Positions 42,057 to 58,539 of a stretch of DNA of 64,000 nt are shown piece by piece. This DNA comes from a virus, in IMG/VR virus record IMGVR_UViG_3300042988_001121, positions 64,001-128,000 of that record. The stretch is one strand, 5' to 3'. The position numbers were made by a program, and so were the translations under genes. The notes beneath the pieces were generated by a model. The model searched no databases and was not told the origin of the DNA. It saw only the letters and a program-made list of their open reading frames with translations. How positions within the stretch are numbered: position 1 is the stretch's first letter; the number at the start of each line of letters is the position of its first letter.

Positions 42057-42072
42057 TTGTTTTTTCTTGTTA

Positions 42073-42399: not shown

Positions 42400-42432
42400 A
42401 TTGTATCACATAAATTTTATGTGTAGATTATT
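42400..42432 (-). promoter_or_regulatory. early promoter cassette copy 9
   Basis: AATAATCTACACATAAAATTTATGTGATACAAT. Confidence 0.9.
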
Positions 42433-42856: not shown

Positions 42857-42912
42857 GTTGATTCCAATAAGTTGTACTTGAACCCTTCCCATGAGCATTC
42901 CAAGCAAGCCAC
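42436..42912. repeat. 22-bp perfect direct repeat (42436-42457 and 42891-42912)
   Basis: ATGAGCATTCCAAGCAAGCCAC at both positions. Confidence 0.9.
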
Positions 42913-42962
42913 AGGTGCATCACCATCGCCTAGTTTAACGGAATGACAGAAGAATTCTTCAT

Positions 42963-44340
42963 TCTTGTTTTAGTAAGGAAACCTAACGACTAAAGATCGT
43001 TAGGAGGAATTGCGTTAAAAATCTTATCTTAAATACGATTATACAACAAACATCCCATTATGTCAACCCAACTTCGCGCCTACAAATACAGACTGTATCC
43101 AGATGTTGCTCAAACAGCAACGCTGGCACAGTTCTTTGGTGCGAAGCGTTGGATTTTCAATCATTTTCTCAATGAACAAAAAACTCGGTTTGATAATAAA
43201 GAAACCCACTTGAGTAACTTTGATTGTAACAAGTTGATTACAGAATTGAAGAAACAAGAAGATACCGATTGGCTTCGTGGGATTGATGATTGGGTCTTAA
43301 AAAGTTCATCAGAAGATTTAAGTGTAGCATACAAAAATTTCTTTGCTTCTATTACAGGAAAACGAAAAGGTCCGAATGTTAAGCCCCCTACCTTCAAGTC
43401 AAAAAATTCCAGACAGAGTTACAGAACTCGTGGCATCAAAATTGATTTTGAGAATAATTTAATTACCGTTCCAAAGATCAAGAGCATCAAGTGTATTATT
43501 CATCGTCAATTCGTAGGAACAATTAAACAAGCAACTGTTTCTAAGAATACTGATGGTCGTTATTATATTTCCATTCTGGTCGATGAAACTATCCAGTTGA
43601 AGCAAATGACTCATCGGGAAGTTGGTATTGACTTTGGGCTTAGAGATTTAGCTATTTTATCAACAGGAGTCAAATTCAATCATCCAGAACAAATGCTTTC
43701 AAGAACCAAGAAAGCATTGAAAAGAGCACAAAGAATCCTTGCTCGTAAAACAAAAGGGTCTAATTCTTATCATAAACAGCGTTTAGTTGTAGCAAAATTG
43801 TATTCAAGACTAACTCGAATGAGGAATGAATATTATCATCTGATTTCTCGTTACTTGGTTAATAATTTTGACGCAATATACCTTGAAGATTTAAACGTCA
43901 ATGGAATGTTGAAGAATCGTAGGTTATCAAGAAAGATACACGAAACCGCTTGGTCTACTTTGAAGAATATGATCAAGTATAAAGCAAATTATGCTGGAAA
44001 GACTGTTCATGAAATCAACCGTTGGCTCCCATCATCCAAGACTTGTTCTTGCTGTGGTTACAAACTTGACAAACTGAATCTCGATGTTCGTGAATGGACT
44101 TGTCCAGTTTGTAACGAGCACCATGACCGTGACCTAAACGCTGCTATAAACATTCTGAATCAAGGTCAAATTGATCTTTATGATTCTAAACAAAATTCCA
44201 GCGCAACACTGGAATTGGAGGCTTCGCCTCCAATGGCTTTGCAGAAACATTCTATGAAAATCGAGAGGTCCAGTTCTAAACGAACTGGTTGGAATGGGGA
44301 GCAAGCAAGCCTAACAGTATTTAGCTGTTAGGTGGTTGAC
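42963..44340 (+). mobile_element. non-autonomous IS200/IS605-family (IS1341-like) element, TnpB only
   Basis: LE hairpin CCTAACGA-ctaaaga-TCGTTAGG; RE hairpin CCTAACAG-tatttag-CTGTTAGG followed by TGGTTGAC; preceded by TCAT. Confidence 0.88.
43060..44331 (+). CDS. tnpB: TnpB RNA-guided endonuclease (IS605 OrfB)
   Basis: RAYKYRLYP HTH; RuvC GIDFG / YLEDL / DRDLNA; Zn finger CSCC..CPVC. Confidence 0.96.
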   Translation: MSTQLRAYKYRLYPDVAQTATLAQFFGAKRWIFNHFLNEQKTRFDNKETHLSNFDCNKLITELKKQEDTDWLRGIDDWVLKSSSEDLSVAYKNFFASITGKRKGPNVKPPTFKSKNSRQSYRTRGIKIDFENNLITVPKIKSIKCIIHRQFVGTIKQATVSKNTDGRYYISILVDETIQLKQMTHREVGIDFGLRDLAILSTGVKFNHPEQMLSRTKKALKRAQRILARKTKGSNSYHKQRLVVAKLYSRLTRMRNEYYHLISRYLVNNFDAIYLEDLNVNGMLKNRRLSRKIHETAWSTLKNMIKYKANYAGKTVHEINRWLPSSKTCSCCGYKLDKLNLDVREWTCPVCNEHHDRDLNAAINILNQGQIDLYDSKQNSSATLELEASPPMALQKHSMKIERSSSKRTGWNGEQASLTVFSC

Positions 44341-44768
44341 AATAAACGTCCCATGAGTCTTTGTGTTGTCGGTAGATCGCGATATCGCGAACACCTTCTT
44401 TATGCCGCATTCGTTCCAGAACTTTTGATGTGTTCTTGCGAGTCTTCAAACTGATTTTAACACAATCTCTGCCAACAGTAAAGTAGATGTAAATACAATA
44501 ACGGATTTTAGGTTTCCTTGCTTTACGTTTCCTTGCAATTTGTTTTCGTGTTAACCGATCATCGGGATCATGGCTCACCGCAATCACGGCAGGATGTGCA
44601 TGCAGCAGAATTTTAGTCATCTGTTCGTCATAGTAAAGATACCCTAGCTTGCATTCGTATCTTTCGCTGTTCCATTCAACAATCGCGTATTTGTTGTCAT
44701 CATAAGCAAGTAACGTGACTTCCTTGATCGAGTGGTCATCTTCCTCGAATGGATAGTCGGTAAAGAAT

Positions 44769-45035
44769 TTACGCATTTCGGTTTAACCTTTCTCTTGCAG
44801 ACATTGCAAAATAAGACCAGTTACCACACTTATCCTCGGTTCGCAAAAGATCACGTGCGGTATAGGAAATGTCTGTCTTACTAAAGCACCGAGCCTCTTG
44901 GTTCAAGATTCCGTTAGTGAAACATCTAACGTGATAAGCACCGTTGATTTTTCTGACCTGAATTTCGTGTTCTACTTCGTCCAACATAACTCGCGAAATT
45001 TGTAATACTGTTTCGTAACGTGGTTTCGTTTTCAT
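44769..45035 (-). CDS. hypothetical protein
   Basis: ATGA overlap with the 3' half of the split gene. Confidence 0.65.
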   Translation of the reverse strand: MKTKPRYETVLQISRVMLDEVEHEIQVRKINGAYHVRCFTNGILNQEARCFSKTDISYTARDLLRTEDKCGNWSYFAMSARERLNRNA

Positions 45036-45101
45036 AATTTACTCACAATGTCATTTACAGTTTCACGGTTAGAAAAGATTCTACCACTAACATGCCAATA
45101 A

Positions 45102-46337
45102 TCATGCCGTTTTATAAAAATCTATAAAACTGACTAGACATTTCAACGAGGTTGCTTTTGGTAACTCCAAAAGACTTACATCCTCTCTATGTCTGTAATC
45201 GGCTGATTCGTCCGATGTGAATCCATAAAGGTCATTCATACCTTTATTGTAAATGTTAACAGCAGCATTCAAGTCTCTATTATGATGGGAACCACAAGAA
45301 GGACAATCCCACTCTCTTATCGATAGCTCCATCTTTTCAATTCTATGACCACAAGAAGAACATGTCTTACTAGAAGGGTAGAAACGATCTATTTTATGGA
45401 AAGTTCTACCTCGCCAATTAGATTTATATGAAATCATTGACACCAATGATGACCATGATGCATCAGATATAGATTTTGATAATTTTCTATTCTTCAGCAT
45501 TCCTTTTATGTTCAAGTCTTCCATTACAATCGTATCATAATTTTTTACAAGCCAAGAACTGATATTGTGGTGAATAAAAGATCGCTGGTTACTAACTTCT
45601 CTGTGAATTCTAGCAACTTTTGTTCTTTGTATTTCCCTTCTATTGGAACCTTCTTGTTTTCTACTAAAGTGCTGCTGTGCGGTTTTTAGCTTCGCTTGGT
45701 TTTTACGAAACCATTTTGGATTAGAGATTTTCATTCCGTTACTAAGAATGCACAAATCTGTTAATCCAAGATCAACACCAATAGTTTTACCTGTTTGTTC
45801 GTAAAGAACTACGTCTTCTTCAACTAGAACAGATACAAAATATTGGTTTGTTTTATTTTTAGAGACAGTAACCGACTTGACCTGCCCATAAAACTTTCTA
45901 TCAATGACCACCTTCAATGGAGACATTTTAGGCAGTTTAATTTTACTGGTATCGAAATTTATGAATTTATTGAAGCCTATAGCCTGCCCCGGTATTCTGA
46001 AAGAATCTGTTGACACGCCCTTTTTCTTAAATTTCATCCTACCAAGTTTTGTTTTCCTTGAAGGGTTAAAATATTGCTTCTTTGTTTCAATGAAATCCAT
46101 GCGTTTTTGCTGAAGCGCATAACTTATTGTATCATTGAGCCAAGAAAACTCAGGCATATCTTTCAATATCTTTTCATCCATCGGTCGGTTCGGACCGTCC
46201 TTGCTATATGAATTGAAATTTGCCACCAGTTGATTCCAAACAAAACGCACGCAACCAAAAGTAGAATCCAAAAATTTAGACTGCTCTTTTGTTGGGTATA
46301 CCCTATATTTGTAGGCTCGAATTTGTTTTGGCATCAT
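45102..46337 (-). CDS. tnpB: TnpB RNA-guided endonuclease (IS607)
   Basis: RAYKYRVYP; GVDLG / VMEDL / NRDLNA; CSSC..CPSC. Confidence 0.96.
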   Translation of the reverse strand: MMPKQIRAYKYRVYPTKEQSKFLDSTFGCVRFVWNQLVANFNSYSKDGPNRPMDEKILKDMPEFSWLNDTISYALQQKRMDFIETKKQYFNPSRKTKLGRMKFKKKGVSTDSFRIPGQAIGFNKFINFDTSKIKLPKMSPLKVVIDRKFYGQVKSVTVSKNKTNQYFVSVLVEEDVVLYEQTGKTIGVDLGLTDLCILSNGMKISNPKWFRKNQAKLKTAQQHFSRKQEGSNRREIQRTKVARIHREVSNQRSFIHHNISSWLVKNYDTIVMEDLNIKGMLKNRKLSKSISDASWSSLVSMISYKSNWRGRTFHKIDRFYPSSKTCSSCGHRIEKMELSIREWDCPSCGSHHNRDLNAAVNIYNKGMNDLYGFTSDESADYRHREDVSLLELPKATSLKCLVSFIDFYKTA

Positions 46338-46362
46338 AAAACTATAAAAATTATATAGTTAT

Positions 46363-46956
46363 TTATTGTTTGTCTACTTTCAATGTCTCTATTAGTTCAA
46401 TTGTTTTTCTCTTACTGCGCCGTTTACCATAAATTCTGGCGCAGAAAGATGTTATCTCTGACACGAAATCTTGTACGATATCTTCATTCCCGACAGAAAC
46501 TTGGTTCACGACTTCTATTTCTTTTTTATTCGCACGAAGCATAGTTTCTATGTAATTAAAACCAAACCGAGTCAGTCGGTCTTTGTGTTCAACGACAATC
46601 TTGGTAAAATCTTGTTCGGATAATAACTTTTGTAATTTTGGGCGCGAATCGTTAAGACCAGAACCAAATTCTGTTATTACATCATGAATTTTATATCCGC
46701 GAGCAGTGCAATATGAAATCATCCTATCTTTTTGAGATTCTAGATTAGTTTTATTGACTGTGCTACTAACACGACAGTATATAACGATTTTTTCTTCGCT
46801 TTTCTCTTTGACGCCGATAAATTTATTATATGTTTCTGTGTCAACAAAATTCATACCGCCGATTTTATGGAACTTTAGTTTACCGGCAGATTTCCAGTTC
46901 CATAAAGTCATTTTGGTAACACCTAGGTCTTTAGCAAATTTACTCAACTTAATCAT
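46363..46956 (-). CDS. tnpA: IS607 TnpA serine recombinase with N-terminal MerR-like HTH
   Basis: LGVTKMTLWNW HTH; IYCRVSS, EFGSGLNDSRP, VEHKDRLTRFGF, SFCARIYG. Confidence 0.96.
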   Translation of the reverse strand: MIKLSKFAKDLGVTKMTLWNWKSAGKLKFHKIGGMNFVDTETYNKFIGVKEKSEEKIVIYCRVSSTVNKTNLESQKDRMISYCTARGYKIHDVITEFGSGLNDSRPKLQKLLSEQDFTKIVVEHKDRLTRFGFNYIETMLRANKKEIEVVNQVSVGNEDIVQDFVSEITSFCARIYGKRRSKRKTIELIETLKVDKQ

Positions 46957-47193
46957 AAACTTTTGGTAAATATTATATAGTTTTTGGTTGGATTATTTAT
47001 TTATATATTATATTCAGGCAATCCGTTGGAATAAACGCCGCGCTTCCAATGATATCCAGAAGTATCGGTGACTTCAACAACTTCCCCGCATCGAGTCACA
47101 TAATTTCCTGCGCCATCAATGATTCGAGGAAAAGAAATGAAAAACGCTTCATACGGTATGTTTGCCACGATAAACTCCTGTTTTGTTGAATCT

Positions 47194-47225
47194 ATTGTAT
47201 CACATGAAACAGTTTATGTAGATTT
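47194..47225 (-). promoter_or_regulatory. early promoter cassette copy 10 (variant)
   Basis: AAATCTACATAAACTGTTTCATGTGATACAAT. Confidence 0.75.
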
Positions 47226-47447
47226 GTCGCCAAACTTCTTAAAAATAACTTTTGGGGTCGGGTTTGCCATGAAATTAATAAAAGCAATAATGACGACAAG
47301 CACATTGATCATTGGCAAGAATGAAACGAGCGCGAATCCCACAAGATCGGGTGCAGTCACATCATCTGTTTTTCTTTGTGTGTAAATGAATCCCATGAAC
47401 AAGAGGCTACTGAAAATAAAGTAACCGACTACTGTGTAATTGAACAT
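47214..47447 (-). CDS. small two-TM membrane protein
   Basis: Two hydrophobic segments; SD AGGAG. Confidence 0.7.
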   Translation of the reverse strand: MFNYTVVGYFIFSSLLFMGFIYTQRKTDDVTAPDLVGFALVSFLPMINVLVVIIAFINFMANPTPKVIFKKFGDKST

Positions 47448-47472
47448 GATTAACTCCTGTTTTGTTGAATCT

Positions 47473-47505
47473 ATTGTATCACAGGCAAACTTATGTGTAG
47501 ATTAT
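47473..47505 (-). promoter_or_regulatory. early promoter cassette copy 11
   Basis: ATAATCTACACATAAGTTTGCCTGTGATACAAT. Confidence 0.9.
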
Positions 47506-47744
47506 CTTTTCTTGAAACGTAGCATCTCAGATTCGTGAAAAGGTAGACCCGGTTCCCCTTCCAGTACCCTTAATTCACGCGCAAAGACACAAATTTCACG
47601 AAAAATTTCGCGCCACGTTGCATGGGGAAACGTGTCAACCAGAAACTCCCAATAACCTAACAATGCGCGTGCATCGTCTAGCCGCATCCCATGCAGAACT
47701 TCACTGAACTTCGATGCAGTCAGAAAACTAATTTTTTGTTTCAT
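47502..47744 (-). CDS. hypothetical protein
   Basis: Start MKQKIS after SD GAGGTG. Confidence 0.6.
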   Translation of the reverse strand: MKQKISFLTASKFSEVLHGMRLDDARALLGYWEFLVDTFPHATWREIFREICVFARELRVLEGEPGLPFHESEMLRFKKR

Positions 47745-47754
47745 TGGTTTCACC

Positions 47755-48102
47755 TCAGATTTTAGCGAAACCAACAGGAGCAACCATGTAGAGGTCGCCT
47801 TGTGGCGTCAAGATAACATCACCTACACTGACTGAGCACATTGTTACGTTAGGGCGCGCTACCAGTTTGCTCTTATCACCAACACCATTTCCAATACCGA
47901 ACACCTCATCAAGAGATTTTGCGTTAATGTCAGCAACAGTTTCATAAAATTTAAAAGCTGCCTTTGCGTTTGTAACATTTTCTCTCTTTTTCAGAAACGC
48001 GGCGACACGTTCACTTTTGTTTGCTGCATCATCCCAACCGAGCGCGTTGACCATGTTGGATTCGGCGATTGTCAGATTGAATTGGAAAACTGTGTAAGTC
48101 AT
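47755..48102 (-). CDS. hypothetical protein
   Basis: Start MTYTVF after SD GGAG; C-terminal SVSVGDV motif. Confidence 0.75.
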   Translation of the reverse strand: MTYTVFQFNLTIAESNMVNALGWDDAANKSERVAAFLKKRENVTNAKAAFKFYETVADINAKSLDEVFGIGNGVGDKSKLVARPNVTMCSVSVGDVILTPQGDLYMVAPVGFAKI

Positions 48103-48133
48103 TTTGAACTCCGGTTTCGTTGTCGATGGAGTT

Positions 48134-48168
48134 ATTGTATCACAGAGAAACTTTATGTGTAGATTATT
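48134..48168 (-). promoter_or_regulatory. early promoter cassette copy 12
   Basis: AATAATCTACACATAAAGTTTCTCTGTGATACAAT. Confidence 0.9.
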
Positions 48169-48405
48169 TTTCACAAAAAGTAAAACCGATTTAAACGGCG
48201 TATAATCGTTTTAAATCGGTTTGGCTACATTGGTACTACTTAACAGAAATGATTGCTCAAACACCGTTTAAATGCGTTCTAGCGGTATTTGGTCGGGATT
48301 TACCACAGTATTCTGCCGAAGCGAGTCATGTGGTCTTTTGATTACGTCGTTTTTCCCGAGTGGTTTCCACTTCCGACAATAAGGTGAGCGCGACTACACC
48401 ATGCA

Positions 48406-48690
48406 TTAGATCAATCTATAGATTACTGAATCCTGTAAATCTTCTTCTTTATAAGAAAATTTGCGAACTTCGTAGTAACTACTTACGATTCCGCCCCAAT
48501 TTCTTTTGTACTGAGTAAATGTTTTACTCAACATTGTCTGGTGCGCCTGTTCGTAGCAGTTGTCATCAAGGAAATAAACAGCAGTCAGGTCACCAAGATG
48601 CTCCATTGTTGATGAAGTCGAATAAACAATCTTCGTCACTCCGAGCGACAACAACTGTTTAATTGATTTTCCGTCCAGATAACCGATCAT
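48406..48690 (-). CDS. hypothetical protein
   Basis: SD GAGGTG, ATGA overlap. Confidence 0.65.
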   Translation of the reverse strand: MIGYLDGKSIKQLLSLGVTKIVYSTSSTMEHLGDLTAVYFLDDNCYEQAHQTMLSKTFTQYKRNWGGIVSSYYEVRKFSYKEEDLQDSVIYRLI

Positions 48691-48854
48691 AGTTTCACCT
48701 CACGCTGAAGATTATAAATTGCTTTTTGTTTCGTTGCGCCATACTGACAATCGCCTACTTGGTCGCCGTTACTATTTTGGTAAAAGGCAACATAGCAATC
48801 ATAATCTCTGTAGTAATAGGTGATGATCTTTGGTGGTAGTTTAGATAAGAACAT
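48687..48854 (-). CDS. small hypothetical protein (not in ORF track)
   Basis: MFLSKLPPKIITYYYRDYDC...GATKQKAIYNLQREVKL*; SD GGAG after cassette. Confidence 0.65.
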   Translation of the reverse strand: MFLSKLPPKIITYYYRDYDCYVAFYQNSNGDQVGDCQYGATKQKAIYNLQREVKL

Positions 48855-48880
48855 TTTAGTTTCTCCGTGTCATTGAATCT

Positions 48881-48914
48881 ATTGTAACACAGAGAAACTT
48901 ATGTGTAGATTATT
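48881..48914 (-). promoter_or_regulatory. early promoter cassette copy 13
   Basis: AATAATCTACACATAAGTTTCTCTGTGTTACAAT. Confidence 0.9.
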
Positions 48915-49230
48915 TCATTTCTTGCCGATTTTGTAGGCGCATTTCAATGTCAGCCACTGTATCTAATGCATCCGACACCGAGATTGTGTGACCAGATGCC
49001 GCAATCAGATGCACCACTGCCCGTAACCGTTCGCTTTGTAAAGTTGTCTCGGTATGCTTATTCAGATAATGTCGATATGCTTCTCGCATCTCTTTTGAAT
49101 TTGTAGCAACACTGGCGTCCAGTTCATTACATCGATTCATGAACTGATTTACTTGCCGTTCGAAATCGTTATTAACTAAAGCAACAAAATTATTGAGCTT
49201 TTCGTTCAGTTCACTCATTGTGATTGGTTC
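48910..49230 (-). CDS. hypothetical helical protein
   Basis: Start MEPITM; ends QEMK* in the cassette. Confidence 0.65.
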   Translation of the reverse strand, partial: EPITMSELNEKLNNFVALVNNDFERQVNQFMNRCNELDASVATNSKEMREAYRHYLNKHTETTLQSERLRAVVHLIAASGHTISVSDALDTVADIEMRLQNRQEMK

Positions 49231-49244
49231 CATTTTATTTCCTT

Positions 49245-50552
49245 TCAAAATTTATTTGCGCGTTCAACGATAGTTGAGAACGATTCATTGACCAATAAAT
49301 CGCCGTTATCGTAGACCTTACGCATCAATGAAGTGATCTGACGACCACCAACAGATTTTTTACCTGAGTCTGTGATAGGGTCTTTAACAGTATCGATCCA
49401 CGTATCACCAACACGAATAGCAGAAGTCTTCTGAGCAAAAGAATAAGTATCTCGATTGACGTTCTGAAGCAACCCACCGCCTGAGCCATAAATCACATTC
49501 TCGGGAGCATAATTGTATGCAGAGATTGCTCTCAACAGCATAGGCATCGTGGTTCGATTGATTCCATCACCCTGAAGAACCCCGACATTGTTGATAACAA
49601 TTTTACCTTTGCTATTAACAGTAAATCCGAATGCCAGTTTCAGTTTCTCCAGAATCCTTGGCAGCACAACAAATGGATCGCCACTATCAGGACGAACCAC
49701 AAACTTACCACCAGAGTTCTTGATAGCTTCAACAAATTCTGGCTCACACAACACGTCTACCTCACGATAAATGTCATATCCATCCATGACCGCCGAAACA
49801 ATGTTTCCGGGACGAAGTAAACTAATCATTCGCTTCAGATACTCTCGCTGACCTTCTTTGCCATAAGAACACTGGACACTGTGTTCACTAGCAAGAACGC
49901 TATAACCCGGCATATCGGCATTGTAGTTATCACGAAGGTACTTCAACGCAACCACATCGTCAGTTCCTTTGAAATAGATCAAGTGAGCAGCGCCACCTAC
50001 TTCGGCGGTTTGACGACTACTGACCCCGCGACTACCGAAGCTGTGCAAAGAGAAAGGAATCATGTCTGTCGCATCTGAATCTCGCTTATAAACAGCTTGA
50101 ATCTGATTGTAGCTGTATAGGTCTTGACTAGCAATAGTGGTTGGATACCAGATAGCCCGTTGCATCGATGTTTCAATGAATGAAGCAATCGAGAAACAAT
50201 CGGCATCATAGCATTCAACTGTTACCAATGGGTTCGATGAATCAACTACCTTGCCTTCAGGAACAGCAAAAATAGTGACAGGAAGATAACCACCATAGAC
50301 AGTAAGAACTTTCTCCCACATTGCGCGATTGAATGACAGTCCATGAGAAACAAGAATAGTCTCTGCCTCGTCAATGTCTTGTTTCGTAATAGGCTTCAGT
50401 AAGTTTTCTTTAATCCATCCCTGTAACCCAAATGGCACAATCTGTTCGTTCTTTTTACGCGCCTGTACGTAAGAAGACATTGCATTGGTTCCCTCGGGAT
50501 ACATCGCGAAGTGACTATTTTTATAACTGTCGGCATCAAGAATAATGTTCAT
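49245..50552 (-). CDS. nadV: nicotinamide phosphoribosyltransferase (NAMPT)
   Basis: DADSYKNSH, HSFGSRG, ASEHSV, VMDGYD, VRPDSGD, LQGDG, GSGGGLLQ, RDT..FA.K. Confidence 0.97.
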   Translation of the reverse strand: MNIILDADSYKNSHFAMYPEGTNAMSSYVQARKKNEQIVPFGLQGWIKENLLKPITKQDIDEAETILVSHGLSFNRAMWEKVLTVYGGYLPVTIFAVPEGKVVDSSNPLVTVECYDADCFSIASFIETSMQRAIWYPTTIASQDLYSYNQIQAVYKRDSDATDMIPFSLHSFGSRGVSSRQTAEVGGAAHLIYFKGTDDVVALKYLRDNYNADMPGYSVLASEHSVQCSYGKEGQREYLKRMISLLRPGNIVSAVMDGYDIYREVDVLCEPEFVEAIKNSGGKFVVRPDSGDPFVVLPRILEKLKLAFGFTVNSKGKIVINNVGVLQGDGINRTTMPMLLRAISAYNYAPENVIYGSGGGLLQNVNRDTYSFAQKTSAIRVGDTWIDTVKDPITDSGKKSVGGRQITSLMRKVYDNGDLLVNESFSTIVERANKF

Positions 50553-50568
50553 TTTTAACTCCTAAAAA

Positions 50569-51561
50569 TTACGCCATTGAAACGTATGCAGGAACTGGCG
50601 TGACGTTCAGCATCATACTTAAAATGTGTTTGTGATCATCGAACAATGGATAGTTGTTGATTGCATCTTTTACTGATACCCAACGTGTCTCGGCAGCGTC
50701 ATCACATCCATTTGCGCGAGGCAATGACCCATCTTTATCCAATTCAATTTTAAACATAACTACCAATGAATTGCGAGGGATACCAATCGATCGTTTCGGA
50801 TTATCGAACATTTTAGTTGAAACGACTGACCCACGAATAACTTTTTCAGGAACTCGGAGATTAGTTTCCTCGAATAGTTCGCGTACCGCACAATCAAAGA
50901 ATGTCTCGTTACGGTTCTTGAATCCTCCGGGAAGCGCCCATGTACCTGCACCGGGAGCAAATTTACGTTTAATCAGAAGAACATGACCTGCACACAGAAC
51001 CAATGCATCGGAGCAATTGAAATTCAATGTCTCGGGAAAAGGATAATCAGCAAAAAGTTCTTTTTCCTTCTGATAGAATTTCCAGTCGTCCATTACCGAT
51101 GAAGGCATATTATGGTCATTACTCATGAACATGGCAGTTCGTATATCGGTCGCCGAGCGACCATTCATTTGCTGATGAAGACCCTGAAACTTATAACCGG
51201 GGAACCAGTTCAGGTAGTCATTACCTTCTTTCATGTGCCCAAGAATAACAACTTCATCGCCTTCTTGATTATATTCATCGATTGTACGCTGAACATCTGC
51301 GATCCACTGTGTATCCGAATAGAGATAATCATTCAATGGCGCGATTTCTACTTCAATGTCGATTGAATGTGCGAAGTTTCGTATAGTGTTCTTACGTTCC
51401 GAGTAAGTCCAAGGATTTTTGACAGTTCGGGCGCTATTAGCAGAACCGACCAGAATAAGGATGCGATCAACCAAGGTTGATACTTGTTGAATCATTTTCC
51501 GATGACCATCGTGCAATGGCTGGAAACGACCGATAATAATACCAAGTTTTGCTTTTGACAT
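50569..51561 (-). CDS. nadM: bifunctional NMN adenylyltransferase / Nudix hydrolase (NadM-Nudix, NatV-like)
   Basis: GRFQPLHDGH; SATDIR; Nudix box GG..NRNETFFDCAVRELFEET. Confidence 0.96.
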   Translation of the reverse strand: MSKAKLGIIIGRFQPLHDGHRKMIQQVSTLVDRILILVGSANSARTVKNPWTYSERKNTIRNFAHSIDIEVEIAPLNDYLYSDTQWIADVQRTIDEYNQEGDEVVILGHMKEGNDYLNWFPGYKFQGLHQQMNGRSATDIRTAMFMSNDHNMPSSVMDDWKFYQKEKELFADYPFPETLNFNCSDALVLCAGHVLLIKRKFAPGAGTWALPGGFKNRNETFFDCAVRELFEETNLRVPEKVIRGSVVSTKMFDNPKRSIGIPRNSLVVMFKIELDKDGSLPRANGCDDAAETRWVSVKDAINNYPLFDDHKHILSMMLNVTPVPAYVSMA

Positions 51562-51596
51562 TTTAACTCCTAATTTGTCTTGATTTATTTATTGTA

Positions 51597-52142
51597 TCAC
51601 AGAAACTGATTCGGAATTTCACGAGAACCAAATTTTCCTGCCCATGATGCGATGTGTTGCTTTTCTTTTCGATAATAGTTCCAGTAAGACTCGACCGAAC
51701 TGTTTTTCACAACACAGTGCCCCGGCATTGCAGGAGTAGGTTCAGTAAATTTAGCCAGACTAATTTTAGTTGGTGCATTTTTCAGAACATCGTATAGTTC
51801 ACGACACTTGTGAATTCTACCATAACGATAAGTGTATTCTTCATTCAGGGCAACGAAAAGTGAGTAAAGCCAATCGTAATTTTCTTTTGATTGTCTTACC
51901 CACACGGTGCTAGGATGATTAACATGAGTTGACTTGTAGACCCTAGAATTACGATGATCAAATAAAACCCATTGCTTTGTTCTTCGACCAGAATCACTCA
52001 TGACAATTCTTTCCTCTCCATCAATGACACGATGGGCAGTGGAAAGTAATTGTGCGTACTCTGTGATCATTTTTATGCAATGCTTAGAAACGTGATACCG
52101 AGCCGCTTTGACTGGATCATTGTCAAGGTAGAAGATGTTCAT
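51597..52142 (-). CDS. pyrimidine-dimer DNA glycosylase-like (DenV-related) protein
   Basis: MNIFYLD..HCIKMITEYAQLLSTAH..HVNHPSTVW..EYTYRYGRIH. Confidence 0.8.
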   Translation of the reverse strand: MNIFYLDNDPVKAARYHVSKHCIKMITEYAQLLSTAHRVIDGEERIVMSDSGRRTKQWVLFDHRNSRVYKSTHVNHPSTVWVRQSKENYDWLYSLFVALNEEYTYRYGRIHKCRELYDVLKNAPTKISLAKFTEPTPAMPGHCVVKNSSVESYWNYYRKEKQHIASWAGKFGSREIPNQFL

Positions 52143-52362
52143 GATGCTGTTTTGCAACGGTTTTGTATTTCCGAATTGTTTCCACTAAATCAAATGCTGA
52201 TTCTAACAAAGATTCTTTGATGTAGATTGTTGCTTGACCACCACGAACATCATCTGCCTCGTTAATTATTCGTTTGAGCAGGTGATATAGATTGTCGCGT
52301 TGATGCAGGATGGTTTCGTAGTCAACCATGCCACTATCACGGGTATCAACATTTGAATTCAT
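52123..52362 (-). CDS. hypothetical protein
   Basis: Start MNSNVD after SD GAAAGG. Confidence 0.6.
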   Translation of the reverse strand: MNSNVDTRDSGMVDYETILHQRDNLYHLLKRIINEADDVRGGQATIYIKESLLESAFDLVETIRKYKTVAKQHHEHLLP

Positions 52363-52363
52363 G

Positions 52364-52564
52364 TTAAACCTTTCCTGCGTAGTCGGCACGCATGTACCAA
52401 TCAGGTGCAACATCTTGGTTGTTTCTTGAATTGTATTGCCGACAGAATTGCCGGGCAGATTCTTCGCTATCGAAGTATTTTACTTCGTCAACTTTCTGAC
52501 CCCAACCACGCTCTGACTCAATTATTTCTACTTTGTAGATGTTTCCGATTTTGATTTCTGCCAT
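52364..52564 (-). CDS. hypothetical protein
   Basis: IIESERGWGQK..YF.SEE.A motif; SD AGGAG. Confidence 0.75.
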   Translation of the reverse strand: MAEIKIGNIYKVEIIESERGWGQKVDEVKYFDSEESARQFCRQYNSRNNQDVAPDWYMRADYAGKV

Positions 52565-52589
52565 GATTAACTCCTGTTTTGTTGAATCA

Positions 52590-52623
52590 ATTATAACACA
52601 GGAAAAATTACGTGTAGATTATT
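52590..52623 (-). promoter_or_regulatory. early promoter cassette copy 14
   Basis: AATAATCTACACGTAATTTTTCCTGTGTTATAAT. Confidence 0.85.
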
Positions 52624-52815
52624 TTATTCAAACTTCTCACTTGGGTTGTATCTTCGCTTCATTCTCCAAAAAGTTCTCATCATGCAGCATGCAGGCGTTC
52701 TGTGCTGGCTTTGTGTGCCAATATGCAACCGTCCGTTATAAAACTTGCAAAATGGCTTTGGTTTTGGCAGCTTTTGCAGTAGATTGCTGGCGTATCGTTC
52801 ATAAGCTGGCGTCAT
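52624..52815 (-). CDS. hypothetical basic protein
   Basis: ATGA overlap. Confidence 0.55.
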   Translation of the reverse strand: MTPAYERYASNLLQKLPKPKPFCKFYNGRLHIGTQSQHRTPACCMMRTFWRMKRRYNPSEKFE

Positions 52816-53069
52816 TTACTTTCCTTCAAAACCTCGTTGATTTCCTCGATACCTTTGTCGCCCATGCACTGAAAAAGGCACATTGCAGGGACTCCGTACT
52901 CAAAGCATTTGCTGGCTTGCGATAAGGTCAACCCTCTTTTGCCGTGTACAAATTCGCTGTAATGGCTCTGTGATATTCCAATGACCTTTGCCCATTGCCG
53001 CTGTGTAAGCATGTATTGGTCACGTCTGAATTCCACTGCGTCGATGATTGATGGTAGCCCCACATTCAT
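52812..53069 (-). CDS. XRE/Cro-family HTH protein
   Basis: TQRQWAKVIGISQSHYSEFVHGKRGLT. Confidence 0.85.
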   Translation of the reverse strand: MNVGLPSIIDAVEFRRDQYMLTQRQWAKVIGISQSHYSEFVHGKRGLTLSQASKCFEYGVPAMCLFQCMGDKGIEEINEVLKESK

Positions 53070-53380
53070 CCTCCAGTCGCTTTTGCAATTACCACTGCTA
53101 GACCTTTACCTTGAATGAGCCAAGTAAATTCTTCGATAGGTATCACTGCGTCTGTGCTGTTTGCCCACCTATCAAAGTCAGCACTCGGACAAGACACATC
53201 AACATCCCATGTAGTCCCAAAATGAAACCGAAAAAGCCTGCTACCTTTTTTGGCGATGCAGCACCCTTTCCCATAAAAGTCTCTTGATACTTTAAATCCA
53301 TGTCTTTTTAGGAATGTCTTAAACGCTGCTCGCTTTTTAAATTTAGGGTGAGAGAACGTCCACTTGATTCTTCTCATCAA
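53066..53380 (-). CDS. hypothetical protein
   Basis: Ends IAKATGG*. Confidence 0.65.
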   Translation of the reverse strand: MMRRIKWTFSHPKFKKRAAFKTFLKRHGFKVSRDFYGKGCCIAKKGSRLFRFHFGTTWDVDVSCPSADFDRWANSTDAVIPIEEFTWLIQGKGLAVVIAKATGG

Positions 53381-53670
53381 GACTCTCCAGTCGCTTTTGC
53401 GATTGCTGCACGAGCCATAAACGCAAAATGGTTTATTGTTGTGGTGCTGTACGTAACTGCACCATCAGTCGAAGACTGTTCGACATGAACGTAGTCAGAA
53501 AAAGATTTAAGCGCCTCCAGTAAATCAGGTGCTGCTGCAATTAGTCGTGCATTGGCTGGTGATGGGTCTGTCACAAAGTCGCAGATAAACTTCTCGTCTG
53601 CACCAAAAAGGTATCCGACCTCATACTCGCAATCAGGCACAAATTTCCAAGGTGCTGGTGTGTGGCTCAT
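53377..53670 (-). CDS. MSHTP/ANARLIAAAP-family phage protein, copy 1
   Basis: MSHTPAPW..ANARLIAAAPDLLEAL..AAIAKATGES. Confidence 0.8.
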   Translation of the reverse strand: MSHTPAPWKFVPDCEYEVGYLFGADEKFICDFVTDPSPANARLIAAAPDLLEALKSFSDYVHVEQSSTDGAVTYSTTTINHFAFMARAAIAKATGES

Positions 53671-53807
53671 TTCATTTCTCCACGTATCTTGTTGTAAATC
53701 TCGTCGGCAGTCGAGCCTCTTTCCTCGCAATGACTTATAAATTCAGTCCAATTTGCACCAAGAAAATCCAGTAGTACATTTATCTCAAATTCATCCAATT
53801 CAGTCAT
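53667..53807 (-). CDS. small hypothetical protein ending GEMK (not in ORF track)
   Basis: MTELDEFEINVLLDFLGANWTEFISHCEERGSTADEIYNKIRGEMK*. Confidence 0.7.
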   Translation of the reverse strand: MTELDEFEINVLLDFLGANWTEFISHCEERGSTADEIYNKIRGEMK

Positions 53808-53833
53808 TTCATTTCTCCGTCAGAATGTGTGGC

Positions 53834-54040
53834 TCATAATTCCACCCCGCACATAGGGCAGTATGTGGCGAAGACTTGCACTGCATTTGACCTTGCTTTT
53901 GGATGCACCTTGCACGTAGCCAGCAATATGCGCTCTTTGTCATCGCTACCTAGACTAATTGTGTCCATCAATCTAGTGTTATATGGTTTTAAAAGCTCAT
54001 TGAGCTTTGCTACACAGTCGTGTTTTGTTTCTGCTGTCAT
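53834..54040 (-). CDS. small Zn-ribbon protein (MTAETK family), copy 1
   Basis: HDC ... YCPMCG. Confidence 0.75.
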   Translation of the reverse strand: MTAETKHDCVAKLNELLKPYNTRLMDTISLGSDDKERILLATCKVHPKARSNAVQVFATYCPMCGVEL

Positions 54041-54291
54041 TTCATGTCTCTTTCAGACTCTTTGATAACGGCTTCCATTTGCACGAAGGCTCTCAAATAC
54101 CCTTCAGCCTCAATCATTCCGGCTGAAAGACCTTGCTGCTTATAGTCATCATATAAAGCGCGAGCATTTTCAACGCCACTTAAAATGTCATGTTTAATCC
54201 ACTCATAGGACTCAATCGTTTTCTTTGCTTTTTCCAGCAAAGGAGGCTCTTTGTAATACGTGATGCCGTTAACTGTTATTGAGTTACTCAT
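54037..54291 (-). CDS. hypothetical protein
   Basis: Start at a GGAGAAATGAAATG joint. Confidence 0.7.
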   Translation of the reverse strand: MSNSITVNGITYYKEPPLLEKAKKTIESYEWIKHDILSGVENARALYDDYKQQGLSAGMIEAEGYLRAFVQMEAVIKESERDMK

Positions 54292-54695
54292 TTCATTTCT
54301 CCAGTCGCTTTTGTGATTGCTGCGCGTAATGTTTTAATGGCGTCTAAATCTTGTTCGTCTGCTCCGAAAAACTCGCCATATGAGTTCAATCTAGATAGAG
54401 CAAGCATTGCCGCCTCTAGCAACTCAGGTGCTGCTGCAATTAAGCGTGCATTGGCAAGAGCTGTCTCTTTGTGCTTTTCTTCGTCATCATCGAAGTCATA
54501 GCAATCCGTATCAATGTCGCATATATGTGCTGTATGTCCTTTGAGATGGCTTCGTGTGCATTCGCGCGGATTTCCGGCATAAACGCCATGCTGACTTTCA
54601 TATAGCAGCTTATTGGTTATTTCATCTGATGAGAGAAGTTCTCGCTGCATCGCTAATTCCTTCCAGATATACCAAGGCCCAGGTGTGTGGCTCAT
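54288..54695 (-). CDS. MSHTP/ANARLIAAAP-family phage protein, copy 2
   Basis: MSHTPGPW..ANARLIAAAPELLEAA..AAITKATGEMK. Confidence 0.8.
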   Translation of the reverse strand: MSHTPGPWYIWKELAMQRELLSSDEITNKLLYESQHGVYAGNPRECTRSHLKGHTAHICDIDTDCYDFDDDEEKHKETALANARLIAAAPELLEAAMLALSRLNSYGEFFGADEQDLDAIKTLRAAITKATGEMK

Positions 54696-54892
54696 AATTT
54701 CACCCCGCACATAGGGCAGTAAGTGGCGAAGAATATTACGGGCTTTTTCTTAATGGCTGAATCCGCTTTTTCCGTAGTAACCGCAATTCGATCTCTGCCA
54801 TCCATAGTGATGAAAGATGTCAATCGCGTGTTGTGCTTTTTAAGTAATTCATTGATGCGCTCTACGCAGTCGTGTTTTGTTTCTGCTGTCAT
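54692..54892 (-). CDS. small Zn-ribbon protein (MTAETK family), copy 2
   Basis: MTAETKHDC ... FATYCPMCGVKL. Confidence 0.75.
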   Translation of the reverse strand: MTAETKHDCVERINELLKKHNTRLTSFITMDGRDRIAVTTEKADSAIKKKPVIFFATYCPMCGVKL

Positions 54893-55092
54893 TTCATTTC
54901 TCCTTTGGGTACGCAAACCATCTTCAACCCTTTTGCCAATTTTTTGGCTTCAATTGACGCAAATTGGCATGCTTTGAGCGAGTCGAATTCCTGCGTAGTA
55001 ATGGCGTATGACCTGTATGTGCTTGGGTATGCTGCGGCGTCCGTCTGTCCTGCGGATACCGCCCAAGACATAATGAGAATCCATGCTGTCAT
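54889..55092 (-). CDS. small secreted/membrane protein
   Basis: MTAWILIMSWAV...QEFDSLKAC..A...CVPKGEMK. Confidence 0.7.
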   Translation of the reverse strand: MTAWILIMSWAVSAGQTDAAAYPSTYRSYAITTQEFDSLKACQFASIEAKKLAKGLKMVCVPKGEMK

Positions 55093-55114
55093 TTCATTTC
55101 TCCTTATTAATAGT

Positions 55115-55260
55115 TGATGGTGGCAGGCGCTGATCTCCTGCATGACCTTTTAGCCGTTTATGACCGCTTACAAAAAGGACGGTATTACGCAAGACAAGGT
55201 AGCTACTCCCTGCGTAGTCAAACTTTTGTCCCTGTGCATCAGCCTGCACATTCACCATCA
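55115..55260 (-). ncRNA. C4-like antisense RNA (P1/P7 c4-type cloverleaf) with enlarged central domain
   Basis: TGATGGTG/CACCATCA closing stem; GTGAATGTGCAGGCTGATGCAC 5' hairpin; GCAGGAGATCAGCGCCTGC 3' hairpin; complementary loops GCTGAT/ATCAGC. Confidence 0.75.
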
Positions 55261-55377
55261 GGTGTGATGACTGCTTACTTTCTCCGCGTTTTTGTGTGAT
55301 TCGAGTACGACCACCGCATCACAGATTTCGACCAGTCATCACGCCTGATAGCCCTCGCCGGAGCGAGGACGTATTAC

Positions 55378-55764
55378 TTATTCCTGCTTAATCGGACACA
55401 TGGCTTTGCCCCATGCAATGGCGTCTTCTTTGGTGAGGAAAAAAAGTCCGCGCTTCTGGTGTTGTTTGTCACAGCAGTCATCTATCCAATGGGTCATATC
55501 GTAGAAACTAGGTAAACCCGTTGATGGGTAGTAATATGTTTGAGCCATCTCTAGCTTCCCCATATAAGGCGCTGGCAATTCAAAGCCGTTGAAGGTGATG
55601 GTTTCTGGCTTGACTCGATAGTGTTCTTTTCTGTACATCACGTTAGATACCTGATATAGCACTGTGGGCCAGTCTTCATTTATCCAATCACCTTCGCCGT
55701 CTTGCCACTGAATCTGTTTTCCATCTGCAATAGCTTGCAGGATTTCTGCGTATTGGTGTTTCAT
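55378..55764 (-). CDS. hypothetical phage protein
   Basis: MKHQYAEILQAIADGKQIQ..YRVKPETITFNG.E.PAP; SD AGGAG. Confidence 0.8.
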   Translation of the reverse strand: MKHQYAEILQAIADGKQIQWQDGEGDWINEDWPTVLYQVSNVMYRKEHYRVKPETITFNGFELPAPYMGKLEMAQTYYYPSTGLPSFYDMTHWIDDCCDKQHQKRGLFFLTKEDAIAWGKAMCPIKQE

Positions 55765-55788
55765 ACCATCTCCTGTTTTGTTGAATCA

Positions 55789-55823
55789 ATTATAACACAA
55801 GTAAAGGTTATGTGTAGATTATT
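55789..55823 (-). promoter_or_regulatory. early promoter cassette copy 15
   Basis: AATAATCTACACATAACCTTTACTTGTGTTATAAT. Confidence 0.88.
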
Positions 55824-55878
55824 TTACGACAAATCTTCTAAAGTAAATTTCTTGTCGTTCACAAATTTCCTTCACGGT

Positions 55879-56460
55879 TCACTTATCGATGCCGAGTGCA
55901 ATCAATTCTTCTTTTGTCAACTTTGCTTTAGCAGAAGCGATGAGAGATGTACGATCCGCTTCTTCGATGGCTGCTTTAAGAATGTGAACAATCTTTTTAA
56001 GGTCAACATCATGAATAGTCGCCTTCTTTTCCTCAACTTCCTTCATCAATTCTTTACAGTAATCATAATTACATTCGTTTGAAGGAACATCAACTACTTT
56101 CTTTCTTTTCTTCGAGGCTTTCTTTATTTCAGTCACAATTTCCACCAAGGGGTGCATAGAGACTTCAAAATTTTCAAAATCGGAACTTGATGACGTTGAA
56201 CTGTCATAAGTGTAGTGGCAAGGTGTTCCTTGGTGATACTGATAATTGCCGCCTTTATATCCAGTAAATGTATCGATCAATGCACACTCAACGTGCTTAA
56301 TGGATTCATCGATAGTCACTTCATCAAAATTAAATGCGACTTCATAATAATACCCTCGGTGGCTGTGAGGGTTAACAGGCAGATCACTCACCCAACTTCC
56401 ACCATAACCGGGAGCAGATTTGATGGTTTTGAGAATTCGAAGAACTTCACCTAATTTCAC
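55879..56460 (-). CDS. hypothetical protein
   Basis: GTG start after SD AGGAG; PHSHRGYYYEVAF..TFTGYKGG motif. Confidence 0.75.
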   Translation of the reverse strand: MKLGEVLRILKTIKSAPGYGGSWVSDLPVNPHSHRGYYYEVAFNFDEVTIDESIKHVECALIDTFTGYKGGNYQYHQGTPCHYTYDSSTSSSSDFENFEVSMHPLVEIVTEIKKASKKRKKVVDVPSNECNYDYCKELMKEVEEKKATIHDVDLKKIVHILKAAIEEADRTSLIASAKAKLTKEELIALGIDK

Positions 56461-56484
56461 AACAACTCCTGTTTTGTTGAATCT

Positions 56485-56518
56485 ATTGTAACACAGACAA
56501 ACTTATGTGTAGATTATT
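56485..56518 (-). promoter_or_regulatory. early promoter cassette copy 16
   Basis: AATAATCTACACATAAGTTTGTCTGTGTTACAAT. Confidence 0.9.
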
Positions 56519-56525
56519 CGGGTTC

Positions 56526-57101
56526 TTATTTCGTCAACTCAGTTATGTCCGTGAATCTACGCGAAACATAACCACAGTTCTTTGTGTAATGTTTATCATT
56601 AGCAATTCGCTTAAACACATCAATTGCCTTTTCATCACGACTGCATGGAAACGATTCTCCGCACGTTCCGCCTTTCCATGAACCTTTATCCTCCCCTATC
56701 TCGTGATTATAAAGCACCTCTAGGTTGATATAGATTTTCTTTTTCAAGAACAAACGAAGGAATTTGAACAGTCCTGTTCCTCGTCTGTATTCGGCATAAG
56801 TCTTGTGGCACTGCGCCTCGATGATGGTTCCATCAAAGTCACGGAACTGGATGACAGTTTTCTTTACTGCGTTCCTTGCAGCTTCCAGCGACTTAAAATC
56901 AATTCTACCGTTCGGAAGATCACTCACATTCGCAAACTGGCTACCATCTTCATTCAGAATCAGACACTTAGTACGATCTTCTTCGACCCACGGAAACTGT
57001 TTACACCAAGATTTCGATCCTTCCTTGCCGCCCCAACTACCATTTTGAATTCCGTAACGTATGTGGATGTAGTTGTCATAAAGGGTCAACGAGTATCGCA
57101 T
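56526..57101 (-). CDS. hypothetical protein
   Basis: GEDKGSWKGGT motif. Confidence 0.75.
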   Translation of the reverse strand: MRYSLTLYDNYIHIRYGIQNGSWGGKEGSKSWCKQFPWVEEDRTKCLILNEDGSQFANVSDLPNGRIDFKSLEAARNAVKKTVIQFRDFDGTIIEAQCHKTYAEYRRGTGLFKFLRLFLKKKIYINLEVLYNHEIGEDKGSWKGGTCGESFPCSRDEKAIDVFKRIANDKHYTKNCGYVSRRFTDITELTK

Positions 57102-57116
57102 CTAAATATGTCTTTC

Positions 57117-57124
57117 TATAAATA
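57117..57124 (+). promoter_or_regulatory. T4-type late promoter consensus inside the element left end
   Basis: TATAAATA about 35 bp before the tnpB start. Confidence 0.6.
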
Positions 57125-57158
57125 ACAAAAACAATTTAACAAAAATTATACACAATAA

Positions 57159-58361
57159 ATGCAACACAAGGCATATAAGTTTAGACTGTACCCAACGAAA
57201 GTTCAAGAAGCTCTCTTGAACCAAACTTTTGGGTGCGTTCGTTTCTTATGGAACCAACATGTTGCTGCTTTCAATAGTTTTTCTTCCTTCGGTCCAAACA
57301 AAATTGTAACATCAAAACTATTGAAGGACACAGAAGAATTTTCTTGGTTGAATTCTGTTTCTGCGGCTGCTCTGCAACAAAAAGATAACGATTTTTCTGA
57401 ATTTAAGAAGCAGTTTTTCTCCAAAACACGTAAAAAGAAAATTGAGCGCCCTAAATTCAAAAAGAAAGGACAGAAAGACTCTTATCGTCTTCCTAATCAA
57501 AAGTTTACTTTGGACCAAGAAACAAAAAGAATTCGACTCGAAAAAATTGGTAAAGTGAAAATAGTTTTAGACAAAACAATACCAGAAGGCGCTAAGTTTT
57601 TATCGGTAACAATAACAAAAAATCAAACCGGTGAGTATTACGCATCTGTTTTGGTTGAACAAGAAATAAGATGTAAGGAAACAACAGGAAATAGTATTGG
57701 TATAGACCTCGGGTTTATTGATTTGATGACTCTATCAAATGGAATGGTTATACGCAACCCAAGGTGGTTTCGTAAAAATCAAGCGAAGCTAAAAAGAAAA
57801 CAAAAATCATTAAGTAGAAAAAAGATAGGCTCTCGTAGGAGAGAAAAACAAAGAATTGTTGTTGCAAAACAGCATCTAAAAGTTGCTCGACAGCGAGAAT
57901 GGTATCATCATCAAATTTCATCGTGGTTGGTTAATAATTTTGACACTATTTGTATGGAAGACTTGAATTTGAATGGAATGAAAAAATTTCTAGGAAAATC
58001 TGTCAATGATGCCGGTCTTTCTAATCTAATGAATAAAATTGAGTATAAATCTAAGTGGTACGGAAGAACCTTCCATAAAGTGGATAGATTCTTTGCATCC
58101 TCAAAAACATGTTCTTCTTGTGGCAATAAAACAGCGTTTGGTATGGATGTGCGAGAATGGACATGTCAGGCGTGTGGTACATTCCACGACAGAGATTTGA
58201 ATGCATCAATAAACATTTTGAAAAAAGGTCTTAGTGACCTTTATCAATATACTTCGGCTGAGTTAACCGAAGTCATTGAACGTGGAGAAGTCGTAAGACC
58301 TAGATTGGGTGAAATTCATCCAATGGTGGCTACTTCTATGAAGCGTTTAGCGAAACTGTAA
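57159..58361 (+). CDS. tnpB: TnpB RNA-guided endonuclease
   Basis: KAYKFRLYP; GIDLG / CMEDL / DRDLNA; CSSC..CQAC. Confidence 0.96.
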   Translation: MQHKAYKFRLYPTKVQEALLNQTFGCVRFLWNQHVAAFNSFSSFGPNKIVTSKLLKDTEEFSWLNSVSAAALQQKDNDFSEFKKQFFSKTRKKKIERPKFKKKGQKDSYRLPNQKFTLDQETKRIRLEKIGKVKIVLDKTIPEGAKFLSVTITKNQTGEYYASVLVEQEIRCKETTGNSIGIDLGFIDLMTLSNGMVIRNPRWFRKNQAKLKRKQKSLSRKKIGSRRREKQRIVVAKQHLKVARQREWYHHQISSWLVNNFDTICMEDLNLNGMKKFLGKSVNDAGLSNLMNKIEYKSKWYGRTFHKVDRFFASSKTCSSCGNKTAFGMDVREWTCQACGTFHDRDLNASINILKKGLSDLYQYTSAELTEVIERGEVVRPRLGEIHPMVATSMKRLAKL

Positions 58362-58380
58362 AATTTACGGTTTTGCGTAA

Positions 58381-58539
58381 CTACTTCGATTTCTTGGGCT
58401 GAATGAACGCAGGCAGCTTGAATGTTCGATAACCGAATTTTCCGAGATAAAAGGTTAGATCGTTGTGGTCATACCGTTTGACTCGATCTTCCATTTCTCG
58501 ACCAACACGAAACGTGATACCGTAATAGTGTGCCATCAT
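58381..58539 (-). CDS. small hypothetical protein (not in ORF track)
   Basis: MMAHYYGITFRVGREMEDRVKRYDHNDLTFYLGKFGYRTFKLPAFIQPKKSK*; ATGA overlap. Confidence 0.65.
   Translation of the reverse strand: MMAHYYGITFRVGREMEDRVKRYDHNDLTFYLGKFGYRTFKLPAFIQPKKSK

Follow-up and report, generated by a model that had tools for sequence, protein, structure and literature searches.

The locus described here raises the question of what three genes for TnpB, an RNA-guided nuclease, are doing in the genome of a T4-like phage. TnpB is the ancestor of Cas12, and to our knowledge the only natural role known for it is to retain transposons in bacteria. The stretch of DNA analyzed (the window, 64,000 nucleotides) is bases 64001–128000 of the 178,209-bp IMG/VR virus record IMGVR_UViG_3300042988_001121, which has direct terminal repeats and is estimated to be complete; the phage is uncultivated and comes from a lake (freshwater). 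The three TnpB genes belong to three elements, termed B1, B2 and B3. It is well supported by the sequence comparisons below that the genes of these elements – three tnpB genes and one tnpA – are wired to late transcription. On balance, and with modest confidence, we regard B1, B2 and B3 as selfish TnpB/guide-RNA elements that stand behind a gp55-type promoter core, are made late in infection, and home into phage genomes.

Three TnpB genes and the late-promoter box of the phage

The TnpB genes and the catalytic residues of their products are as follows.

43060–44331, plus strand: tnpB1, 423 amino acids (aa), D191/E276/D358
45102–46337, minus strand: tnpB2, 411 aa, D189/E273/D355
57159–58361, plus strand: tnpB3, 400 aa, D183/E267/D346

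All three open reading frames (ORFs) have the same domain order, above the Pfam cut-offs – HTH_OrfB_IS605, OrfB_IS605 (RuvC) and a Cas12f1-like TNB domain – and all three match PHROG 506. They account for the only TNB-domain matches in the 178-kb genome. B1 is 37–40% identical to B2 and B3, and B2 and B3 are 52% identical to each other. A solved ISDra2-type TnpB aligned end to end with each of them (E 1e-59 to 1e-73). The RuvC D-E-D triad, which corresponds to D191/E278/D361 in the ISDra2-type chain, is complete in all three, as are the two CxxC pairs of the zinc finger. An earlier, sequence-only reading of this DNA had described three distinct TnpBs with complete D-E-D triads, and the domains, alignments and residues bear this out. 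As far as sequence can tell, these are divergent TnpBs with intact catalytic residues. They represent two TnpB lineages circulating in T4-like phages, and lie in the early-gene region.

Searches of the genome with T4 proteins (tblastn) found homologues of gp43, gp41, uvsX, gp44, gp45, gp46, gp47, gp61, regA and gp55. The gp55 homologue lies beyond the window, at 148628–149257 of the genome, with a match to the PHROG 'late sigma transcription factor' at 5e-41; the phage encodes both gp55 and the gp45 clamp. By its homologues of T4 core proteins and of gp55, the phage is classed as a distant T4-like virus. A megablast comparison of the 17-kb region with phage records found no near relative among deposited phages.

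In an unbiased count of k-mers within the 60 nucleotides (nt) before 244 greedy ORF calls, the most enriched hexamer was TAAATA, with 34 of its 87 copies in these regions (9.5-fold). Its orientation matches the strand of the downstream gene, and it precedes the genes for the major head protein, scaffold, large terminase, tail tube, baseplate cap and a tail-fibre/baseplate protein. The distance from box to ATG in phage genes is 11–59 nt, with a median of 26. From the 27 sites outside the elements, the phage's own late box is A(A/T)TAAATA(A/C), with T at -2 in none of them.

The sequence-only reading had pointed to TATAAATA in the left ends of two elements and to TAAATA before the other two tnpB starts. 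Both are present where it had placed them, TATAAATA exactly at 57117–57124 (plus) and 46998–47005 (minus) and TAAATA at 43030 (plus) and 46360 (minus). Its identification of these as late-promoter motifs stands for TAAATA, the core of the phage late box, but not for TATAAATA. The latter is not this phage's late-promoter word, because there are only three copies in the whole genome compared to ca. 8 expected, two of the three within the TnpB elements; the meaningful unit is the TAAATA core. A gp55-type box that resembles TATAAATA, with its first two positions variable, is found upstream of late genes here in the form A(A/T)TAAATA. This fits the known variation in the T4 family, in which the first two positions of the 8-mer (-13/-12) vary, with A for T at nine T4 sites and a/gC in Aeh1 (PMC2988020), and in which the late box of S-PM2 is NATAAATA (PMC2984593).

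The boxes before the element genes are these.

43030–43035, plus strand: box tctTAAATAcga before tnpB1, 24 nt from the ATG, inside element B1
46360–46365, minus strand: box caaTAAATAact before tnpB2, 22 nt from the ATG, containing the tnpA stop codon
46994–47005, minus strand: two overlapping boxes before tnpA, aaaTAAATAatc at 37 nt and TATAAATA (ataTAAATAaat) at 41 nt from the ATG
57103–57124, plus strand: two boxes before tnpB3, atcTAAATAtgt at 50 nt and ctaTAAATAaca at 34 nt from the ATG

The first of the tnpB3 boxes reads cTAAATAtg and lies at the left junction of B3, while the second contains TATAAATA. The TATAAATA copy before tnpA overlaps the stop codon TAA (47001–47003) of a small phage gene upstream, and therefore this box may straddle the boundary of B2.

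All four element genes have the TAAATA core 22–41 nt upstream, compared to 26 of the 240 other genes (hypergeometric ca. 2e-4). When the upstream segments were shuffled locally, the chance of a box was 0.04–0.31 at a single site and ca. 4e-4 for the sites jointly. AT-richness, which the sequence-only reading had named as one of the findings that would undo its proposal, can account for any one site but not for the set. B1 and B3 are antisense within a 65-kb block of minus-strand genes, where three of the six plus-strand copies of TAAATA stand before B1 or B3. No good match to a sigma-70 promoter in sense orientation was found before the tnpB genes; the sole perfect match faces the opposite way.

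Relatives of the elements in phages and bacteria

For each of the three TnpBs, the nearest relatives are found in other phage contigs. A metagenome scan for the B3 family gave 80 loci. In the B3 clade, with at least 52% identity, TAAATA is 22–47 nt before the ATG in 12 of 14 loci; in the B3-family loci with less than 50% identity it is 10–60 nt upstream in about 6 of 64. The closest B3 members that have flanks (L006, L007 and L009) have homologues of this phage's genes as neighbours, including a gp46-type SbcC and thymidylate synthase. The relatives of B2 in viral contigs, all without tnpA, sit among genes for baseplate, terminase, clamp-loader and polymerase proteins, and 9 of 12 have the box 22–28 nt upstream. 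Two of the three phage relatives of the IS607 tnpA have it as well. Homologues of the B1 protein were found at 92% and 81% identity, and the one B1 relative with DNA context (L095) keeps the box inside the element, as ttgTAAATActa.

Bacterial copies were surveyed with a pattern scan of one genome per species, covering 185,579 prokaryote species. There are at least 598 bacterial TnpB relatives; among the matches listed, none is more than 41% identical, and the box is found in 1 of 78, or in 1 of 20 where the upstream sequence is at least 65% AT. A scan of bacterial genomes with the B2 protein alone gave no match. The comparison of phage and host copies that the sequence-only reading had proposed comes out in its favor – phage copies keep the box and bacterial copies lack it. 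Its view of the elements as adapted to phages also agrees with the gp55 encoded by the phage, the core on structural genes, and the same spacing before the element genes.

In a quick maximum-likelihood tree, B2 and B3 fall in a well-supported clade of viral and metagenome loci only. The B1 family is a separate, long-branched clade nearer to Bacillota copies in the same tree, the deep nodes of which are weak. The tree suggests that TnpB became associated with the late box independently at least twice.

A different layout is found in the phage relatives L100–L107, L110 and L013–L015. These carry AAACTTnACTAAATA twice, ca. 130 nt upstream of tnpB, the copies separated by a GC-rich hairpin, and have a covarying long-range stem that encloses the second box together with the 5' leader. 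The double-box layout recalls I-TevI, where only late transcripts escape an inhibitory hairpin.

Element ends, predicted guide RNAs and insertion sites

The elements and their parts are listed below.

42996–44341, plus strand: element B1, a solo TnpB element (left end, tnpB1, guide-RNA scaffold, right end GTTGACA)
44129–44341, plus strand: predicted B1 guide-RNA (omegaRNA) scaffold, overlapping the 3' end of tnpB1; 62 predicted pairs, 9 compensatory compared to L095
44342–44357, plus strand: predicted B1 guide/target flank, the first bases past the right end; unique in the genome
45098–47000, minus strand: element B2, IS607-type (tnpA and tnpB2); right end at 45098, left end at ca. 46990–47005
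46363–46956, minus strand: tnpA, a 197-aa serine recombinase with a YCRVSS motif and an N-terminal helix-turn-helix (HTH)
45098–45325, minus strand: predicted B2 guide-RNA scaffold; 59 predicted pairs, 13 compensatory across 4 sequences
45082–45097, minus strand: predicted B2 guide/target flank, in the spacer upstream of an 88-aa gene (44769–45035, minus)
57102–58384, plus strand: element B3, a solo TnpB element with boundaries ambiguous by 1–3 nt
58198–58384, plus strand: predicted B3 guide-RNA scaffold; 58 predicted pairs, 13 compensatory across 5 sequences
58385–58400, plus strand: predicted B3 guide/target flank, in the 3' end of a 52-aa ORF (58384–58539, minus)

Similarity between B1 and the 82%-identical L095, which is in another viral contig with different flanks, runs from ca. 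42996–43003 to the GTTGACA at 44341. The predicted guide of B1 lies within the 3' end of a 151-aa phage ORF (44321–44776, minus), the last six codons and stop of which come from the right end of B1; without B1, this ORF would be ca. 9 codons longer. The right end of B2 is T(G/A)ATTA(T/C) at 45098, common to L096–L098 and of the same pattern as in B3, and the stop codon of tnpB2 is four bases from it. Comparison with the three tnpA relatives did not fix the left end of B2 more closely than ca. 46990–47005. The boundaries of B3 are ambiguous because CTA/C is repeated at both junctions. Its right end, GTAACTA(C/T) at 58383/58384, is common to four relatives with 68–71% identity (L006–L009), and its left junction abuts the ATG of an Acb3-like gene. 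B3 lies exactly between the 52-aa ORF and this Acb3-like ORF (56526–57101, minus), and with CTA at both junctions B3 therefore supplies the stop codon of the 52-aa ORF.

A serine recombinase directly upstream of tnpB, the IS607 arrangement, is found for B2 only. This tnpA is the single Resolvase match in the genome and the sole transposase there. A search for the Y1 transposase (PF01797) of IS200/IS605 elements found no match across the 178 kb. With one serine recombinase in the genome, that of B2, and no Y1, B1 and B3 are transposase-less solo cassettes.

The last ca. 200–230 nt of each element have conserved folds, with compensatory changes inside coding sequence. These folds look like omegaRNA-like guide scaffolds, as predicted RNAs; no Rfam family matched within 42000–60000. 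The 16–20 nt past the right ends differ among the three elements, and each occurs once in the genome, in agreement with the earlier proposal that each TnpB has a guide of its own.

Several other features were seen in and near the elements. A perfect sigma-70 consensus (TTGACA, 17 nt, TATAAT) lies across the start codon of tnpB1, at 43038–43066 (minus), and points out of the left end of B1 toward the phage gene at 42907–42428. It is followed by a terminator-like hairpin at 42982–43004 (minus), formed from the B1 left end and the flank. The -10 hexamer of this outward promoter is absent from L095, the 82% relative. The promoter could serve the downstream phage gene, as in the T4 seg and mob genes, or make a short antisense RNA. 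In B2, a 24-nt direct repeat (83% identical, at 46345–46368 and 46967–46990) stands just before tnpB2 and just before tnpA; it contains AACTATATAAT (minus) and may bind the recombinase or act as a -10-like element. In B3, the scaffold at 58250–58275 is without a 21-nt hairpin (seven TnpB codons) that is present in L006–L009; this hairpin covaries among the four relatives and looks dispensable.

Excising B3 at 57102/3..58383/4 joins the 52-aa ORF and the 191-aa Acb3-like ORF in frame, giving 243 aa. Full Acb3-family proteins have 237–291 aa, and the 191-aa ORF is short of ca. 85–93 N-terminal profile positions. B3 may split an anti-CBASS-like gene (CBASS is the cyclic oligonucleotide-based antiphage signaling system), since the fused length is 243 aa, the two parts are in frame, and the ORF is short at its N-terminus. 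When the 52-aa ORF was tried as the Acb3 N-terminus, a hidden Markov model (HMM) of four homologues did not score the fusion above shuffled controls, which leaves the split gene as a coincidence of length and frame.

Outside the elements, NAD-salvage genes adjoin the region. An early-promoter-like cassette, TGTGATACAAT..., is repeated at ca. 47170–47215 and 47455–47500 (minus), is read through as CDTIDSTKQE, and stands before small minus-strand genes adjoining B2. The motif TGTGATACAATAACTCCATCG ranks with the upstream words of highest enrichment in the genome.

Proposed homing and its alternatives

In the mechanism we propose, TnpB and its guide RNA would be made late in infection, because each element gene would be read from a copy of the gp55-type late core (A/T)TAAATA. 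The guide RNA would be cut from the 3' end of the tnpB mRNA. Late timing would mean that many replicating, recombining copies of the genome are present, so a late TnpB-guide complex would be well placed to convert element-free alleles. The complex would cut a homologous phage genome, be it that of a related phage in the same infection or a copy from which the element has been lost, at the uninterrupted site joining the transposon-adjacent motif (TAM) to the guide-matching flank, and T4-type recombination-dependent repair would then copy the element in. Late transcription, cleavage, and homing between co-infecting phages, the last already proposed by the sequence-only reading, are what we infer for these elements, and their most likely role is a selfish one. 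In bacteria, TnpB is an established homing nuclease that acts on vacant sites (PMC10055086, PMC10690162). For co-infecting phage genomes, such homing appears only as theory in a 2026 review, as 'non-restorative homing' (PMC13565253).

Each part of this mechanism has a counterpart in a known system. The TnpB of ISDra2 and its omegaRNA (IS200/IS605; PDB 8exa, 8bf8, 8h1j) are alike in domain order, D-E-D triad and zinc finger, in a scaffold that overlaps the 3' end of the gene, and in a guide taken from the right flank. However, the phage genome has no Y1 TnpA, and the phage elements are in a lytic phage and have a gp55-type late box in place of a host-type promoter. B2 is like the IS607 family, with a small serine recombinase that has an N-terminal HTH and YCRVSS directly upstream of tnpB, and B3, 52% identical to it, has the same right-end motif, T-R-A-Y-T-A-Y. 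Unlike IS607, B3 and nearly all of the phage relatives have lost tnpA. In B2 one late box serves as the candidate promoter of tnpA and another as that of tnpB2, unlike in L195, where tnpA and tnpB overlap and leave no spacer. In bacterial TnpB/IscB homing (PMC10055086, PMC10690162) the proposed mechanism is the same – guide-directed cleavage of the vacant site and recombination that restores the element – but the target is the sister chromosome after excision by TnpA, where here it would be a co-infecting phage genome.

The T4 homing endonucleases (I-TevI, I-TevII, I-TevIII; seg, mob) are likewise selfish nuclease genes between or within phage genes. Those encoded in introns use middle or late promoters of their own, some with embedded promoters for downstream genes (PMC2988022), which the outward sigma-70 promoter of B1 resembles. 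The differences are that a guide RNA, and not the protein, would recognize the target, that the nuclease has a RuvC fold and not GIY-YIG or HNH, and that homing here is proposed from sequence. Searches for GIY-YIG, HNH_3 and Y1 gave no match in the 178-kb genome, apart from one sub-threshold HNH (genome 44631–44711). Among the families covered, which did not include LAGLIDADG or inteins, the TnpB elements stand out as the main selfish nucleases of the genome. ISCaje1–4 of the Campylobacter phages CP220 and CPt10 are, by their description, similar: TnpB-only IS200/IS605 elements at different sites in T4-related phages, with one copy that has TnpA. Their report did not connect them with late promoters, guide RNAs or homing (PMC2853527). 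It is possible, and no more than tentatively proposed, that in this T4-like lineage TnpB cassettes took the niche of seg and mob, as late, RNA-programmed, transposase-free agents of homing and marker exclusion, with at least two clades having gained the gp55 promoter independently.

A number of observations weigh against homing from late promoters. Because the relatives have common ancestry, those that bear the box cannot be counted as independent events. The boxes of B3 and tnpA taken alone are not significant (p ca. 0.3; 83–85% AT sequence), and the best box of B3 has a T at -2, as none of the phage's 27 own boxes has. The boxes before tnpB2 and tnpA overlap stop codons, so part of the conservation could reflect compact gene junctions. 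A Shine-Dalgarno sequence is visible before none of the three tnpB genes. The left flanks of sister copies, in a comparison that includes L095, share no consistent motif that could be the TAM, and no TAM emerged to back the three different ones that the sequence-only reading had predicted. Among the relatives retrieved, no empty-site allele or presence/absence polymorphism was recovered, and the viral collection has no close relative of the flanking 151-aa ORF or Acb3-like ORF; the best relative of the flanking RNA ligase is only 47% identical.

Three other explanations were weighed, each of which we judge improbable. The elements could be passenger insertion sequences (IS) from the host, with TAAATA a by-product of AT-rich ends and stop codons, and with TnpB serving only for retention after excision. 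The upstream regions are indeed 72–92% AT, the chance of a box at a single site is 0.04–0.31, two of the boxes contain stop codons, and the TnpB-only IS of T4-related Campylobacter phages were described in 2010 with no special role (PMC2853527). The low joint chance of the boxes argues against this view, though, and phage relatives hold the box at a promoter-typical distance though the surrounding sequence diverges, while AT-rich bacterial copies have it in only the 1 of 20 noted above. Nor do B1 and B3 have a transposase for excision, and the listed bacterial relatives are all at or below 41% identity. We therefore hold a passenger origin to be unlikely.

It is similarly doubtful that the box is an element end or target – a TAM overlapping the late core, or a left-end recognition sequence – and not a promoter, in which case its association with the elements would reflect insertion specificity. 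This would suit the cTAAATA exactly at the B3 left junction, the similarity of L007, L013 and L014 to sister copies that begins at or beside TAAATA, and the first box at the extreme left end of the L100-type relatives. It would not suit the second, internal box, which in most copies is 22–29 nt before the ATG and well inside the conserved left end, or the box of B2 between tnpA and tnpB, far from any end, or the left flanks of sister copies, which share no single motif. A third possibility, to which we also give little credence, is that the nucleases are kept for the benefit of the phage, excluding or degrading related competitors without copying of the element, or regulating neighbour genes. 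Homing endonucleases can give a competitive advantage by killing competitor phages (PMC13565253), B1 has its perfect outward sigma-70 promoter toward the next phage gene, and the genome is without GIY-YIG or HNH_3 endonuclease genes. But the predicted guides are the adjacent flank, as in selfish elements, the insertion sites differ among phages, and no retargeted guides or arrays were seen.

TnpB-only IS in T4-related phages have been known since 2010 (PMC2853527), though not with the reading given here, and a literature search found no report tying TnpB to T4-type late promoters. If phage TnpBs are tied to late transcription and home between co-infecting genomes, they would be a natural RNA-guided gene drive in viruses, and a second, independent route to the homing lifestyle. 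Such homing would explain the persistence of transposase-less TnpB genes in lytic phages, and would provide compact nucleases with native guides, in a system whose promoter box, guide and empty site can be tested directly.

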